Part shown: one piece after another, positions 43,339 through 57,109 of the stretch
How positions within the stretch are numbered: the stretch's first letter is position 1
Layout of the letters: each line of letters opens with the position of its first letter
Origin: Escherichia phage vB_EcoM_ASO1B
Sequence record: MZ726792.1
Direction: 5' to 3' (one strand)
DNA: 64,000 bases
Program-made: the position numbers and the translations under genes
Notes under the pieces: generated by a model
Told to the model about the DNA's origin: nothing
Database searches by the model: none
The model's input: only the letters and a program-made list of their open reading frames with translations

Positions 43339-51354
<8,016 letters not shown>

Positions 51355-51356
51355 TA

Positions 51357-52544
51357 ATGGCAGTAGGTGAAATTCAAATTAGTGCCTTGCCTCAAGCAGC
51401 CTTACCAATTGACCTTAGTGATATCTTCCATCTTAAACAAGGTATTGAGGATAAGAGATGCACTCTTGAGCAATTACTTGCTCCACACTCAAGCCTAAGA
51501 AATAACCCTCATGGTGTTACTAAAACACAAATTGGTTTAGATAACGTTATCAATGCTCTTCAGTTAGTTGCTGCAAATAACTTATCAGACGTTACTAATG
51601 TAGCTGAGGCAAGAGCAAATCTACAGATTATGTCTTCAGAAGAGGTTAATAACCTTGTCCAGCAACATATCAAGGACAAGAGTAACCCACACAATACAAC
51701 TAAGGCACAGGTTGGTTTAAGTAATGTTCAGAACTGGACAACATCTAATCTGTATAACGAAGATGCAGATAAGTATGCTACAGCAAGAGCAGTAAATAAC
51801 TTGTACAAGGCTGTTCAGGCTTCTTATCCAGTAGGTACTATCCATCTTTCTATGAACTCTGCAAACCCTTCTACATACTTAATTTGTGGAGGTACTTGGG
51901 AGTTAGTTTCAAAAGGTAGAGCATTGGTTGGTTATGACTCTGACACAAGACCAGCAGGTTCTGTATTTGGTGCTTCAACTGTCACTTTGTCAGTTAATAA
52001 CATGCCTCAACACTCTCACTCTGTGTCTCTTAGTGGTGGTGGTCATACTCATAATGCAACGGTGTCAATTTCAGCTTTTGACTATGGGACTAAGACTACC
52101 AACTCTTTTGACTATGGAACTAAGACCACTAACACAACTGGTAACCACAACCATGTTGGTAGTGGGTCAACAAGTTCTGCTGGTGCTCATAACCACAGAT
52201 TGACCTATGAATCAGGTGGTGGTTTATCGGAAAGACCTGCAATGGTTTGGTCTTCAAGGAATGACCAATCATGGTACTCAGCAGATGCTGTCTGTGAAGT
52301 AGCTGGTGCACACACTCACTCTTTCAGTGTTACCACTAACACAACTGGTAACCACAACCATACGGTTGGTATTGGTGCTCATAGCCACACAGTTGGTATT
52401 GGTTCGCATACACATAATGGTACTGTAACAGTTTCTTCTTCTGAACATACGCATAGCGGGAACACTAATAGTGTTGGTGGAGGACAAGCTTTCAACATTG
52501 AGCAGCCATCCTTCGTACTGTATGTATGGCAGAGAACAGCTTAA
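51357..52544 (+). CDS. tail fiber protein with HxH (His-box) repeats
   Basis: 395 aa; repeated GNHNH, GAHTHS, GSHTHNG motifs; C-terminus QPSFVLYVWQRTA shared with next fiber. Confidence 0.6.
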   Translation: MAVGEIQISALPQAALPIDLSDIFHLKQGIEDKRCTLEQLLAPHSSLRNNPHGVTKTQIGLDNVINALQLVAANNLSDVTNVAEARANLQIMSSEEVNNLVQQHIKDKSNPHNTTKAQVGLSNVQNWTTSNLYNEDADKYATARAVNNLYKAVQASYPVGTIHLSMNSANPSTYLICGGTWELVSKGRALVGYDSDTRPAGSVFGASTVTLSVNNMPQHSHSVSLSGGGHTHNATVSISAFDYGTKTTNSFDYGTKTTNTTGNHNHVGSGSTSSAGAHNHRLTYESGGGLSERPAMVWSSRNDQSWYSADAVCEVAGAHTHSFSVTTNTTGNHNHTVGIGAHSHTVGIGSHTHNGTVTVSSSEHTHSGNTNSVGGGQAFNIEQPSFVLYVWQRTA

Positions 52545-52590
52545 TTTCTTTACAGGGGCTTGATAGCCCCTTTTAAGAGGAAAATTTATA

Positions 52591-54981
52591 ATGGCAGATT
52601 ACAAGTTGAGTGAATTAAACTCAATCGATACAATCCGTTCAGATGACCTTCTTCATGTCAGGGTTAAAAAGAGACCTGAAATGCTAGGTGATGAAGACCG
52701 TCGAATGACCTATCAAGATTTCTTAGCATCTTTTAAACTTGAAAGATTTGTTCAGATTGCTGGTAGTACTATGACGGGTGACTTAGGGATTGTTAAGTTA
52801 CTCTATGGTGGCAAGGCAGTATTTGACCCAACAGGTTCTTCTGAGATTACTATTGGGGATGTTTTAAAGACTTTTAAAATCAACGCAAATGGCCTTAAAC
52901 TAACTATCGCAGATGCTTCAAGGTCAGCAACTGTTTATCATACTCTGAATAAACCAAGCCCTAATGAACTTGGTATGAGAACTAATAAAGAGAATGATGC
53001 AAGATACTCAAAATTAGCTGTAAATAATACCTTTAGAGGTACTCAAGCTATCCTCTCTGACAATGAAGCGCTCATTATTAAAAATATCACTCAAGGTGCC
53101 CCACTCTATCTTCGTGGTCAAGATGCAGATGGTACTAACAGATGGTATCTAGGTAATGATAATAGGGGCACAAATAATCTTGTATTGAAGAATGTAAAGT
53201 CTGACGTTTCAATTGCTATTTTAGAGAATTTGGTGACAGTCAACAGAACTCTTCAAATTGCTGGCCAAGTTCAGCCTTCAAGTTTTGCTAACTTAGATGC
53301 TAGGTATTTTACCCAGACAGCAGCTAATCAGAGATTTGCGCAGTTAGCTGGTAATAACACTTTTACTGGTACTAACACTTTCTCTAATTTTGTTGCTAAG
53401 AAGAATGCTGAAGCCATCACTCTACAAAATGTGGACACTGCCCCCTCTTTATATATTCGAGCAAGAAAGTCAGATGGGAATTATAAGTGGTACATTGGTA
53501 ATGACGGTGATGAGAACATTTTAAAAATCTATAACTATCTAACAAAAACACAAGTCTCACTAGGTAACACTATTGCCATGAGCAAAACAGTTCAAATTGA
53601 TGGTCAAGTACAACCTTCTGATTGGACTAACATTGATTCTAGATATATTCCGGCAGCCACTTTGAGTAATCTCCCTAAACTTAATGTGTCTAATACTTTC
53701 ACAAATGTGCAAACTATTGTATCTAACAACGAGGGTTTGGTATTAAGGAACTTGACACAGGGGCGGCCACTATATATCCGTGGTGTTGATACTGAGAATG
53801 TTTCTAGATGGTGGTTAGGTGTAGGTGGTTCAAACTCTAATGTGGTAACACTTAACAACAACTATTCTAACACTAAAATCGCACTTGGTGGCTCATCAGT
53901 AATGACTAACAAGAGCTTAGCTATTACTGGTCAAGTACAACCTTCTGACTTCTCTAACTTAGATGCTAGATACTATACCCAAGCTGCCGCAAACGCAAGA
54001 TATATGCTTGCAAGCATCACTGGTTCGGCTTCTGAAGCAGATGGTGGTGGTGGTGTTGCATGGGATGCAAAAACAGGTCTTTATAAGGTTACTAACACCA
54101 CTGGACGGTATTCTTCACTTGTATATCACATGTTTTTAGGGACTGGTTCTACACCGTCTGCACAATTAAAGTTTTCGTTTAAAAATGGTGGGATGTGGTA
54201 TAGAGCATCAAGAGATGCCTATGGCTTCGAAGTTAATTGGTCTAAAGTTTACACGGAAGCACAAAAACCAACCCCTTCAGAGATTGGTGCATACACTAAA
54301 GCTGAAACTGACCAGAAAATTGCAACAGCAATTAGTGACTCTACAGACCTTAATAAAATCTATCCAGTAGGTATTGTGACATGGTTTAACAGCAATGTTG
54401 ACCCTAATACAGCACTTCCTGGTCTAACTTGGACGTACCTGAACAATGGTGTTGGTAGAACTATCAGAATTGCAGCAGCAAACGGTTCAGATGTTGCTAC
54501 AACTGGTGGTTCAGATTCTGTGACGTTAGCTGTTGGTAACTTACCATCACACACCCATAGTTTCTCTGCTACCACTTCATCTTTTGATTATGGTACGAAG
54601 AACACTAATAGCACTGGTGGTCATACTCACTCTGTAAGTGGTACAACAAGTGCTGCTGGTAACCACGCTCACCACTTAGGTCTGTTATTGGTTAATGGTG
54701 GTGATGCTCAGTATGGTTACACAACTGTTAGCAACAGCAAGACAAGAACTCTTGACTGGCTTGATAGAAAAGATAACAAATTCCCTAACACTAACACAAC
54801 TGGTAACCATACACACACATGGTCTGGTACTACAAGTAACACTGGTGCTCACACCCACTCTGTAGGTATCGGTGCTCACACTCATACAGTTAGTGGTAAC
54901 ACTGGTGGTACAGGTTCTGGTTCAGCATTCAGTGTTACTAACCAGTTCTACAAGTTAATGGCTTGGGTAAGAACTGCTTAA
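52591..54981 (+). CDS. long tail fiber protein with internal domain repeats and C-terminal HxH repeats
   Basis: 796 aa; three repeats of ~110 aa (LQIAGQVQPSxFxNLDARYxTQ); C-terminal HTHS, GNHAHH, GAHTHSVGIGAHTH; ends NQFYKLMAWVRTA. Confidence 0.6.
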   Translation: MADYKLSELNSIDTIRSDDLLHVRVKKRPEMLGDEDRRMTYQDFLASFKLERFVQIAGSTMTGDLGIVKLLYGGKAVFDPTGSSEITIGDVLKTFKINANGLKLTIADASRSATVYHTLNKPSPNELGMRTNKENDARYSKLAVNNTFRGTQAILSDNEALIIKNITQGAPLYLRGQDADGTNRWYLGNDNRGTNNLVLKNVKSDVSIAILENLVTVNRTLQIAGQVQPSSFANLDARYFTQTAANQRFAQLAGNNTFTGTNTFSNFVAKKNAEAITLQNVDTAPSLYIRARKSDGNYKWYIGNDGDENILKIYNYLTKTQVSLGNTIAMSKTVQIDGQVQPSDWTNIDSRYIPAATLSNLPKLNVSNTFTNVQTIVSNNEGLVLRNLTQGRPLYIRGVDTENVSRWWLGVGGSNSNVVTLNNNYSNTKIALGGSSVMTNKSLAITGQVQPSDFSNLDARYYTQAAANARYMLASITGSASEADGGGGVAWDAKTGLYKVTNTTGRYSSLVYHMFLGTGSTPSAQLKFSFKNGGMWYRASRDAYGFEVNWSKVYTEAQKPTPSEIGAYTKAETDQKIATAISDSTDLNKIYPVGIVTWFNSNVDPNTALPGLTWTYLNNGVGRTIRIAAANGSDVATTGGSDSVTLAVGNLPSHTHSFSATTSSFDYGTKNTNSTGGHTHSVSGTTSAAGNHAHHLGLLLVNGGDAQYGYTTVSNSKTRTLDWLDRKDNKFPNTNTTGNHTHTWSGTTSNTGAHTHSVGIGAHTHTVSGNTGGTGSGSAFSVTNQFYKLMAWVRTA

Positions 54982-55060: not shown

Positions 55061-55258
55061 ATGCCTACAATCCTAGCAATTCTTCTAAAAAATCTAGGTA
55101 GCTTCTTCTGGAAACTCATTTTATCCCTTCTAAGTGAATACATGATTGAGAAAGTGTTCTTTAGGCTTGCAAGATACCTTGCGAGTAAAACAGACACACC
55201 TATTGATGATGAGTTCGTAGATAACTTAGAAAAAGCTTTTAAGGGGGAGAATAAATGA
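55061..55258 (+). CDS. small membrane protein (holin candidate)
   Basis: 65 aa, hydrophobic N-terminus, charged C-terminus; follows tail fibers. Confidence 0.35.
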   Translation: MPTILAILLKNLGSFFWKLILSLLSEYMIEKVFFRLARYLASKTDTPIDDEFVDNLEKAFKGENK

Positions 55259-55626
55259 AGTGGCTAGAGGAAGCTTTTAAAAATAATATTGGTGCAATTG
55301 TTGTTGGTATTTTTAGTGTTATTGGGATGTATACCACTATGCAAGTTTCAAGTGGTAAGCAAGAAGTGTCTGTCACAACAAAGTTACAGCAGCTAGATAA
55401 TTATTCCAAAAGTAACTATTCAGCTATTCGTGATTTACAGTCTGACATGAGACTGATTCAGCTAGGGATGGAGAACCAGAAAGTTCAGTTAGAGAACGTT
55501 AAGGGTGAGAATGCAAAACTTACCAAAACTCTTGATAAATTCTCTGACAGTGTGAATAATCTGGCTCAATCAGTATCAGCCTTGCAAGCTATTACTGAAA
55601 AGAACACAAAGAATACTGAAAAATAA
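55255..55626 (+). CDS. membrane-anchored coiled-coil protein
   Basis: 123 aa; TM segment IGAIVVGIFSVIGMYTT. Confidence 0.4.
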   Translation: MKWLEEAFKNNIGAIVVGIFSVIGMYTTMQVSSGKQEVSVTTKLQQLDNYSKSNYSAIRDLQSDMRLIQLGMENQKVQLENVKGENAKLTKTLDKFSDSVNNLAQSVSALQAITEKNTKNTEK

Positions 55627-55633
55627 AGTTTAA

Positions 55634-55659
55634 GGCTCCTTTTTACGGGAGCCTTTTTT
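55634..55659. terminator. bidirectional intrinsic terminator between convergent genes
   Basis: GGCTCC-TTTTTAC-GGGAGCC hairpin flanked by A/T runs on both sides. Confidence 0.6.
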
Positions 55660-55662
55660 GTT

Positions 55663-56562
55663 TTACTTGCCTACTGACAGAGGTGCTTCAATCTTCCCTG
55701 CATGTTGGTAGTTGTTAATTCCACCAATAAAGTCACTTGCAGTAAGATGTTTTAAGTCACTTAAAGTGTTAAGCTGTACACCAATCTCAAAAGTAGGTGC
55801 ATGGAACTCTTCATTGTTCATCAGTTCATAAACCTGCTTCATATGGTTCTGATAAATCTGAGTATCTCCAAAGACACCTATCAAGTACCGTGGAGTGTAT
55901 CCAGTCATCTTGCAAAGAACTTCCAGAATAAAACCATAAGACGCAATATTAAATGGAAGTCCTAAAAAGGTGTCTACAGAACGTTGATACCATTGTAAGT
56001 CAACTTCACCTTCATTAGTGATATAAATCTGAAACAGAACATGACAAGGTGCTAAAGCCATTGAGTTTGCTGCAATATCTGCTGCATTCCAAGCATTAAC
56101 AAGCATGTAACGGTCTGTGATATCACCCTTCATCTTCGTTACTAAGGCCTCTAACTGGTCTACAACACAACCATTATGACCTTCGAAGTTTCTCCACTGA
56201 ACCCCGTAGATTCTCCCACCTGCATCTTCTAACCAGTCTTGCTCAGAAGAATAGTTAGAGCTTAACCAACGTTTAAAATCATCTGACCAGATGGTCCAAC
56301 GTTCTCCATCATTTTCACCCCAAGTGCGATAACGGAGTTCACCAAGTTTATTCTCACCATTCAGGAACCATAAAGCTTCCCCAATAACTTGCCGTGTAAA
56401 CACCTGTTTAGATGTTAAGAGTGGGAAACCAGTTCTCATATCAAAACGAAACTGTGGTGGAGCAAATGCAGAGATAACATCCCCAGTTCGTGTAGTACGC
56501 AGTTCACCAACGGATAAAACATGGTTCAGGATATTTTTGTAACTCAAATCAGCTTGTGACAT
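55663..56562 (-). CDS. td: thymidylate synthase (ThyA-type)
   Basis: 299 aa; active-site block LAPCHVLFQ and ThyA-like N-terminal region; no intron apparent. Confidence 0.85.
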   Translation of the reverse strand: MSQADLSYKNILNHVLSVGELRTTRTGDVISAFAPPQFRFDMRTGFPLLTSKQVFTRQVIGEALWFLNGENKLGELRYRTWGENDGERWTIWSDDFKRWLSSNYSSEQDWLEDAGGRIYGVQWRNFEGHNGCVVDQLEALVTKMKGDITDRYMLVNAWNAADIAANSMALAPCHVLFQIYITNEGEVDLQWYQRSVDTFLGLPFNIASYGFILEVLCKMTGYTPRYLIGVFGDTQIYQNHMKQVYELMNNEEFHAPTFEIGVQLNTLSDLKHLTASDFIGGINNYQHAGKIEAPLSVGK

Positions 56563-56563
56563 A

Positions 56564-57109
56564 TCAAAAGTGTCCTTTTACTTGTGGAACATAAATTTCA
56601 AAAGTTGCTTTACCATCCTCTGATGGTTTTGACTGTACCTTTGTAAATACACGGTTATCATACAGCTTCTCAAAGAAGTTTTCAAAAGGTAAATGCACAG
56701 TGGCCTCTTCAGTAACTTTATGGAAGACTGTATGGAACACCACACCAGCATACGGTAAAGCATTGACAAGGACACCTGCACCACCAATTACAAAGACATC
56801 TTCATCAATAGAACTATCAAGATACTTCAAAAATGCTCCAAAGGATTCTTTGTTGGCCTTAGCATACATTACATCATCTTTGCCAAAATCTATGCCTAAG
56901 TATGGTACAGAATTTGTTAAGATGAGATTTGCACGTTCTGGTAAAGGTTTACTCCCCAGAGTCTTGAAAGTCTCATTACCCATCACTACTAAGTTATTTT
57001 TAGTGAGTCTCTTAAACTCTTGCATGTCCTGTTTATGTCGAGGCCACGGCATACCAGTTGGAGTACCAAACTCTCCATTTTCACCACTTGCAAAGATTAA
57101 TTTAATCAT
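56564..57109 (-). CDS. frd: dihydrofolate reductase
   Basis: 181 aa; GMPWP, VVMGNETFKTLG motifs; adjacent to td. Confidence 0.8.
   Translation of the reverse strand: MIKLIFASGENGEFGTPTGMPWPRHKQDMQEFKRLTKNNLVVMGNETFKTLGSKPLPERANLILTNSVPYLGIDFGKDDVMYAKANKESFGAFLKYLDSSIDEDVFVIGGAGVLVNALPYAGVVFHTVFHKVTEEATVHLPFENFFEKLYDNRVFTKVQSKPSEDGKATFEIYVPQVKGHF

Follow-up and report, generated by a model that had tools for sequence, protein, structure and literature searches.

Two tail fiber genes of a Felix O1-like phage

We analyzed a 64,000-nt stretch of DNA from Escherichia phage vB_EcoM_ASO1B (sequence record MZ726792.1), referred to here as the window, and focused on two adjacent open reading frames (ORFs) of the + strand, 51357–52544 (395 amino acids, aa) and 52591–54981 (796 aa), which lie downstream of a run of baseplate genes. 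Both products fell into tail fiber families in a PHROG search, the first with E = 1e-137 and the second, in phrog_4277, with E = 0. We call them the short tail fiber (STF) and the long tail fiber (LTF). A DNA query with the 3.6-kb fiber region retrieved 239 phage records, nearly all of them from Felixounavirus (Felix O1-like myoviruses of Escherichia, Salmonella and Shigella), and the matched genes in those records carry tail fiber annotation. The top match was phage ASO1A, with 97% identity across 91% of the query. On these sequence matches, we assign the source phage to Felixounavirus. A preliminary description of the stretch had named two tail fiber genes at this locus, in agreement with both the PHROG families and the Felixounavirus annotations.

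For comparison, we used Bas63 (Escherichia phage JohannRWettstein), on which the published work consists of cryogenic electron microscopy (cryo-EM) and AlphaFold modeling. The genes encoding wedge 2 (489 aa) and wedge 1 (285 aa), followed by those for the LTF platform (100 aa), STF and LTF, match bas63_0023–0027 in size and order, and the order from the spike gene to the LTF gene is that of bas63_0021–0027 (Table 1). Protein identity to Bas63 is 75% for STF (with gp26) and 66% for LTF (with gp27). STF is also 99.5% identical to the tail fiber of phage KhF3, and the database protein closest to LTF shows 93% identity.

Table 1. Features of the fiber locus and the spike gene, with positions in the window and, within proteins, amino acid ranges
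Feature	Position	Strand	Basis or remarks
Central spike (puncture apparatus), 207 aa	47681–48304	+	Pfam Gp138_N, E = 6e-20; HxH H188-T-H190 encoded at 48242–48250
LTF-platform protein, 100 aa, baseplate adaptor carrying the long fiber	51052–51354	+	phrog_4141; 99/100 identical to PDB 9NDY chain S 'LTF platform protein (gp025)'
STF, 395 aa, ortholog of Bas63 gp26, Sf14 gp52, Felix O1 gp76	51357–52544	+	300/401 identical to Bas63 gp26
STF N-terminal baseplate-binding region, aa 1–45, motif G-IEDKRCT-LEQLLA	51357–51491	+	Conserved in STF homolog alignment
STF shaft, aa 46–140, two ~60-aa repeats	51492–51776	+	Internal alignment, z = 9.7
STF collar domain, first part, aa 141–218, predicted T4 gp10/gp11 C-terminal-domain fold	51777–52010	+	
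STF descending needle arm, aa 219–280, HxH 219, 230, 264, 278	52011–52196	+	Aligned with T4 gp37 HxH 883, 915, 929
STF head domain, aa 281–318, hypervariable, predicted receptor-contacting distal tip	52197–52310	+	
STF ascending needle arm, aa 319–366, HxH 319, 333, 342, 351, 364	52311–52454	+	Aligned with T4 gp37 HxH 966, 980, 989, 998
STF collar-closing segment, aa 367–395, GNT...AFNIEQPSFVLYVWQRTA	52455–52541	+	
Stem-loop GGGGCT-TGAT-AGCCCC, then TTTT	52555–52574	+	Read from sequence; in the 46-nt gap between the fiber genes
LTF, 796 aa, ortholog of Bas63 gp27, Sf14 gp53, Felix O1 gp77	52591–54981	+	phrog_4277, E = 0; 524/800 identical to Bas63 gp27
LTF N-terminal attachment region, aa 1–137	52591–53001	+	Almost invariant, entropy <0.2 (32 homologs)
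LTF repeat R1, aa 138–238	53002–53304	+	
LTF repeat R2, aa 239–350	53305–53640	+	
LTF repeat R3, aa 351–459	53641–53967	+	
LTF domain of Pfam gp37_C / Mu gpS type, aa 460–585	53968–54345	+	Pfam gp37_C (PF12604), E = 9e-18; entropy 1.3–1.9
LTF collar domain, first part, aa 586–653	54346–54549	+	Nearly invariant among 32 homologs
LTF descending needle arm, aa 654–695, HxH 654, 678, 692 (HAHH)	54550–54675	+	Aligned with T4 HxH 883, 915, 929
LTF head domain, aa 696–739, variable, predicted receptor-contacting tip	54676–54807	+	Entropy <=1.4 in otherwise invariant tip (32 homologs)
LTF ascending needle arm, aa 740–765, HxH 740, 754, 763	54808–54885	+	Aligned with T4 HxH 966, 980, 989
LTF collar-closing segment, aa 766–796, GNTGGTGSGSAFSVTNQFYKLMAWVRTA	54886–54978	+	Invariant in 32 homologs; aligns with STF and T4 gp10/gp11/gp37 ends

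The N-terminal motif of STF aligns with residues 33–46 of LTF (GDEDRRMTYQDFLA) at z = 3.7, giving a weak motif, G-x-ED-(K/R)-R-(C/M)-T, common to both fibers. The same Cys/Met pair of N-terminal motifs has been described for the fibers of Sf14, a phage of a sister genus. Distal to the N-terminus, both shafts are repetitive. In STF, the motif NPHxxTKxQxGLxNV occurs at residues 50–64 and 110–124 (51504–51548 and 51684–51728). The 'short tail fiber gp92' chain of PDB 9ZD7 was matched by related repeats of the form LSDVxNxAxARxNL.

The LTF shaft contains three repeats, R1–R3, of ~100–112 aa, as the preliminary description had noted (three of ~110 aa). Alignments of the segments gave pairwise identities of 33–48%, with z of 21–34 relative to shuffles, and each repeat is closed by GQVQPSxxxNxDxRY. 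Pfam gp37_trimer matched three stretches of LTF corresponding to R1–R3 (E = 2e-59), and the repeats also appear at the DNA level, as repeat family D2. Self-BLASTP of LTF returned the identity match alone, with the repeats undetected. Five β-helix repeat domains have been described for the Bas63 long fiber (PMC12609058). Downstream of R3, LTF residues 477–581 (54019–54333) matched residues 330–430 of the Mu tail fiber protein S (PDB 8JU3) with E = 2e-21. In LTF, this domain is internal and is followed by a full T4-type tip.

Annotation of the fiber genes across the genus shows minor inconsistencies. GenBank labels the Bas63 short fiber, bas63_0026, 'long tail fiber protein' (MZ501086, 19499–20647) and its long fiber 'tail fiber protein'. 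In ASO1A, the annotation places the start of the long-fiber coding sequence further upstream, so that it overlaps the short fiber gene, and MADYK is found at codon 24 of that translation.

HxH blocks and similarity to the T4 gp37 tip

HxH (His-any residue-His) motifs are concentrated in the two fibers. STF carries nine and LTF six, compared to means of 1.4 and 0.3 in shuffled versions of these proteins, and none of 20,000 shuffles reached either count. The remaining ORFs of 150 aa or longer in the window encode two or fewer. In each fiber, the motifs fall into two blocks separated by a variable internal segment (STF 281–318, LTF 696–739). The preliminary description had listed a number of these motifs and held that both fibers end in clusters of them. 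Every motif it quoted is present, and clusters near the C-terminus are real; yet STF 219, 230, 333 and 342 and LTF 740 were missing from the list, and the motifs bracket an internal segment rather than simply ending the chain.

Searches of the PDB with phmmer linked this part of both fibers to the tip of T4 gp37. STF 146–367 matched residues 18–228 of 2XGF (E = 2.3e-26), LTF 647–775 matched residues 92–218 (E = 2.2e-19), and a profile built from 45 STF homologs matched the same structure with E = 5.3e-27. In a three-way MAFFT alignment, all seven HxH motifs of T4 gp37 (883, 915 and 929 in the first block; 966, 980, 989 and 998 in the second) coincide with HxH motifs of STF, and six of the seven coincide with those of LTF, from which the equivalent of T4 998 is deleted. 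The two additional motifs of STF, at 230 and 364, lie in insertions of the first arm (13 aa) and the second arm, respectively, both at the collar end. Other likenesses include a common collar/needle/head order, SFDYGTK and GxHxH motifs, a VGIGAHxHTV repeat and a related C-terminal strand. Needle lengths differ, and the head sequences are unrelated. The segment preceding the first HxH matches the C-terminal domain of T4 gp10, by Pfam (Gp10_C) and by PDB matches to gp10. For the LTF collar the Pfam match is weak (E = 4e-4; 21.7 bits, under the 27-bit cutoff), and the LTF collar aligns with the collar and needle of STF at 37% identity (E = 5e-22). Pfam Phage_fiber repeat also matched LTF residues 759–771. 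Based on these alignments, we assign to both fibers a T4 gp37-type tip, consisting of a collar, a descending HxH arm, a head, an ascending HxH arm and a C-terminal strand.

The T4 gp37 tip is an interdigitated trimer whose HxH motifs hold seven iron ions (PMC12609058, PMC11705849). This is in line with the statement in the preliminary description that HxH repeats of phage fiber tips coordinate metal in such trimers, and the fibers analyzed here are homologous. For a chain that descends the needle and then returns along it, any change in the length of one HxH block has to be matched in the other. This is what the spans of the descending and ascending blocks show: 62 and 48 residues in STF, 49 and 35 in T4 gp37, 48 and 34 in the homolog P0027, and 41 and 26 in LTF. 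The difference is 14–15 residues throughout, so T4 gp37 and the fibers here share the same offset between the arms.

Sequence variability peaks between the two HxH blocks in both fiber tips. Among 45 STF homologs, entropy reaches ~2.9 bits in the head, versus ~1 elsewhere, and the head ranges from 7 to 67 aa in length. Among 32 LTF homologs, hardly any variation occurs in the N-terminus (1–140), the collar or the C-terminus; the head (~696–739) and shaft residues 461–560 vary. By homology, the internal variable segment would be the physical distal tip. Arm co-variation, the variability pattern, the homologous C-terminal strand and a model of the collar provide indirect evidence for a down-and-back topology, in which a variable head would sit at the turn and the C-terminus would return to the collar.

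Comparison with T4 gp10 and gp11 bears on the collar. Collars of both fibers match the C-terminal domain of these proteins in sequence (PF21939; PDB 2FKK, 1EL6), and a C-terminal '...Y.W.R(I/T)A' strand is common to all. In gp10 and gp11 this domain forms a compact head at the terminus, whereas in the fibers here a long needle and head hairpin is inserted into it before the last strand. The setting of the tip also differs from that in T4. The T4 long fiber is made of four proteins, whereas here the tip belongs to a one-protein fiber at a simple Mu-like baseplate.

Much of this architecture has been described in orthologs. The cryo-EM study of Bas63 assigned to STF (gp26) and LTF (gp27) a tip that resembles T4 gp37 in collar, needle and head and carries conserved HxH motifs, with the chain doubling back at the head and gp25 serving as the LTF-platform protein (PMC12609058). 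The Sf14 paper presents the same fiber picture, and the 2010 Felix O1 genome paper noted that the C-termini of gp76 and gp77 resemble T4 gp37. Thus, the architecture, the HxH motifs and the spike HxH (Bas63 and Sf14, 2025), as well as the likeness to gp37 (Felix O1, 2010), are already published. The domain plan in Bas63 and Sf14 is the same as here: a baseplate-binding domain at the N-terminus, a shaft and a T4 gp37-like HxH collar, needle and head. The Bas63 LTF collar and C-terminus are identical to those here, but both head cassettes differ. Seven HxH motifs were counted in the Bas63 short fiber, and six in its long fiber along with an extra histidine near 692–695 (PMC12609058). The Bas63 short fiber has two descending and five ascending motifs, versus four and five here, because the distal descending arm in Bas63 lost two. 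In the long fiber, the additional histidine close to the head lies in HHNH in Bas63 and in HAHH (692–695) here. The present results add in a small way to this picture, with nine HxH levels in STF versus seven in Bas63, and an LTF that is a natural recombinant (see below). Their value lies mostly in annotation and engineering and little in discovery; this is an ordinary fiber tip in a well-sampled phage genus.

Taken together, these data make it very likely that STF and LTF are homotrimeric fibers of a Felix O1-like myovirus whose T4 gp37-type tips have axial HxH metal sites and fold back into the collar. Each fiber would attach to the baseplate by its N-terminus, and the three ~110-aa repeats of LTF would be shaft modules. 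Each chain would build most of the collar (with the T4 gp10/gp11 C-terminal-domain fold) first and then descend a thin needle. The small hypervariable head at the turn would be the true distal end, presumably contacting the lipopolysaccharide (LPS) core. The chain would then ascend the needle, and its last strand, '...W.RTA', would insert into the collar. With three chains interdigitating, the needle would be six-stranded, and the HxH histidines contributed by all chains would face the three-fold axis, giving octahedral metal sites of six imidazoles each (Fe2+ in T4). Nine stacked sites are predicted for STF and six for LTF, versus seven in T4 gp37, and these would rivet the needle. What was observed here comprises gene identity, homology, the alignment of the motifs, the pattern of variability and the joint change in arm length. 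The geometry of the trimer, the identity of the metal and contact between head and receptor are inferred from the T4 and Bas63 work, and on-axis clustering and metal occupancy of the histidines would follow by analogy. Bas63 requires an intact LPS core, which is its receptor. In T4, by contrast, OmpC or LPS is used. The PhageMaP essentiality preprint on Bas63 contains nothing on fiber genes.

Several observations weigh against this interpretation. An AlphaFold2 monomer model of STF, computed from the 45-sequence alignment, had a mean predicted local distance difference test (pLDDT) score of 64 and a predicted template modeling score of 0.26, and was confident in the collar only; confidence was low in the needle and head, with head pLDDT below 50. 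A Foldseek search of the PDB with this model yielded nothing at E <= 0.001. (Its top matches were long β-hairpins of pore-forming toxins, which we judged meaningless.) HxH levels are partly dispensable, as Bas63 STF does without two descending motifs and STF homologs range from 6 to 11. The Bas63 fiber density was too poor for side-chain modeling (PMC12609058). Among the 32 homologs, the gp37_C-like shaft domain is the most variable segment of LTF, at least equal to the head, so the head may not be the sole specificity determinant. Finally, a PHROG scan limited to the ORFs flanking the fiber genes (the LTF platform and two small ORFs of 65 and 123 aa, for putative membrane proteins) produced no match to a tail fiber assembly or chaperone family. 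No counterpart of T4 gp38 or gp57A was seen adjoining the fiber genes, and no Mu-type U/U' chaperone gene follows LTF; Mu-type chaperone homologs are likewise absent according to the Sf14 paper. With no chaperone gene of known family adjoining the fibers, their folding may differ from that in T4. On balance, the observation made in the preliminary description was confirmed, and its interpretation is supported by homology and by the published structures of orthologs.

Head cassettes and recombination

In comparison with ASO1A, divergence is confined to two head cassettes, 52140–52349 in STF and 54630–54869 in LTF, with identities of 20–67%. Both are bordered by conserved HxH-encoding sequence. 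At finer scale, DNA identity of the STF head is 37–53% over 52200–52349, versus 83–90% in the flanks, and that of the LTF head is 20–50% over 54660–54839. The locus is ~100% identical to KhF3 across the baseplate genes, STF, and the N-terminus and tip of LTF. The LTF shaft (52757–54356), on the other hand, is 100% identical to ASO1A and 34–83% identical to KhF3. LTF is a natural recombinant of KhF3-like and ASO1A-like lineages, a feature that sets it apart from its Bas63 counterpart. Across the genus, the receptor-binding tips and β-helix repeats have been singled out as the variable parts (PMC12609058).

An exact 21-mer, CACTAACACAACTGGTAACCA, which encodes TNTTGNH, brackets the STF cassette (52127–52147 and 52334–52354) and has a third copy in LTF (54789–54809). 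KhF3 has three copies, ASO1A one (with one mismatch) and Bas63 none. The 21-mer is a possible recombination junction.

These patterns raise the possibility that the conserved His-box segments serve mainly as linkers for the exchange of head cassettes, with metal binding secondary or absent. The HxH-encoding borders of both cassettes, the recurrence of the 21-mer around the STF cassette and in LTF, and the visibly recombinant nature of LTF all point this way. Tetart, Desplats and Krisch are said to have proposed, in 1998, His-box-mediated exchange for T-even genes 37 and 38; a literature search on His-box recombination returned no paper using that term. Yet the histidines are kept in the protein where the DNA has diverged, for example in homologs from Erwinia and Pectobacterium phages at 40–50% identity, and the HxH motifs align one-to-one with the crystallographic iron ligands of T4. 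ASO1A lacks a second copy of the 21-mer, Bas63 lacks it altogether, and the breakpoints of the LTF shaft sit in conserved non-His regions. We consider it doubtful that linkage is the main role of these segments, although such a role would complement the metal-site reading rather than compete with it.

STF homologs vary from 6 to 11 HxH motifs by matched gains and losses on both arms, with most having nine, as here. Needle length or metal load could thus be tunable, and natural variants with 6–11 levels offer a simple series for assessing how metal sites contribute to fiber stability.

For engineering, the parts of the distal domains to swap are the head cassettes inside the chain, because the C-terminal ends would fold back into the collar. 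Host-range determinants to exchange are the cassettes at ~52140–52349 and 54630–54869, and possibly the LTF shaft domain (53968–54345), and the conserved HxH-flanked borders provide natural junctions for chimeras. With regard to the shaft, the ASO1A-like portion includes the gp37_C/Mu-S-like domain (aa 460–585). This hints at a second, lateral receptor-binding site selected apart from the head, and the domain may be a further specificity determinant. A broader proposal, built on the tunable needle and the lateral site, that the fibers carry more independently exchangeable modules of specificity and stability than a 'tip decides host range' picture would allow, we think unlikely.

Predicted metal sites, the shared C-terminus and neighboring genes

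Another possibility is that the HxH ladders have a structural role without iron, with zinc or some other metal in its place or with no metal at all; the needle would then be stabilized by histidine stacking or hydrogen bonding. T4 gp12 binds zinc via histidines of a related collar/head domain. Moreover, the number of motifs varies, and Bas63 has non-His residues at two of them. Against this, the seven iron-site motifs of T4 align in the same GxHxH context and with the same spacing, as in VGIGAH(T/S)HTV, and the octahedral six-histidine sites of T4 gp37 were assigned as iron (PMC12609058, PMC11705849). A metal-free or non-iron ladder thus seems quite unlikely, and iron remains our expectation for the axial sites. 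HNH and HTH strings can also call to mind HNH nucleases or metalloproteases. We rejected both meanings: no such family was matched by the fibers, and the context of these strings is the GxHxH fiber repeat.

The fibers share a C-terminal motif. The preliminary description called the termini near-identical, which overstates the case (5 of the last 10 residues are identical), but the similarity itself is real: alignment of the last 30 residues gave z = 12.4, and none of 2000 shuffles reached its score. In the STF family (45 homologs), the C-terminal EQPSxVxYVWxRTA is conserved. The ends of STF (...QPSFVLYVWQRTA) and LTF (...NQFYKLMAWVRTA) align with the C-termini of T4 gp10 (...QPYITVYRWIRIA), gp11 (...TVFYHFERTA) and gp37 (...AFNYIVRLA), indicating that the '...W.RTA' end is the closing strand of a common collar domain. 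In the AlphaFold2 model of STF, strand 385–393 is the most confidently modeled collar strand (pLDDT ~91). By these comparisons, the shared motif reads as a collar-closing strand and not as a separate functional tag. That it is instead a signal of its own outside the mature fold, either the autoproteolytic junction of a cleavable intramolecular chaperone or a common chaperone docking site, is very improbable: the motif is common to both fibers, is invariant among LTF homologs and has no separate chaperone gene in the flanking ORFs, but it matches the ends of full-length T4 products, it is the best-modeled strand of the collar, and the ORF holds nothing beyond it that could be a cleavable domain.

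A further HxH occurs in the central spike, which is identical at 205 of 207 residues to PDB 9NDY chain G, 'Puncture apparatus (gp021)' of Bas63. The preliminary description had the spike ending in HTHHYYW. The string is present, at residues 188–194 of 207, but 13 residues follow it. A lone HxH in this protein is not statistically unusual (3701 of 20,000 shuffles) and is unremarkable by count, so its meaning rests on homology. In Bas63, H188 and H190 of the puncture apparatus were modeled facing the trimer interior as likely iron ligands (PMC12609058), and the Sf14 paper likewise reads the spike HxH as an iron site. Iron-loaded spikes (P2 gpV, phi92 gp138 and Mu gp45) are alike in having a Gp138_N domain and an HxH near the C-terminal apex. 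With phi92 gp138 itself, the match in sequence is weak (E = 0.015), and the 13 trailing residues mean that the HTHHYYW segment is not at the very end here. By analogy, H188 and H190 would be the spike's counterpart of the fiber metal sites, with a single such site at the apex of its membrane-piercing needle.

The intergenic stem-loop (Table 1) is GC-rich and lies just 5' of the ribosome-binding site of the long fiber gene. A terminator scan with a minimum of five T residues did not call it. It could be a weak attenuator.

Upstream of the spike gene, after the tape-measure gene, a 265-aa ORF (45566–46363) belongs to phrog_3721, a family of unknown function, with weaker matches to endolysin and tail fiber families (E = 1e-22 and 4e-16, respectively). 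Directly 3' of the LTF gene are the two small overlapping ORFs, 55061–55258 (65 aa) and 55255–55626 (123 aa), which encode hydrophobic N-terminal segments and fall in phrog_402 and phrog_4038, families of unknown function. In the Sf14 paper, the gp55 of that phage, a protein found in its virions, is listed as 'Holin or lysozyme'. This ORF pair is followed by a bidirectional terminator-like hairpin at 55632–55655. Beyond it, on the minus strand, genes for thymidylate synthase and dihydrofolate reductase (55663–57109) run toward the end of the structural module. GC skew changes sign at 55663–57109, which marks where the late structural operon gives way to a block for nucleotide metabolism transcribed in the opposite direction.

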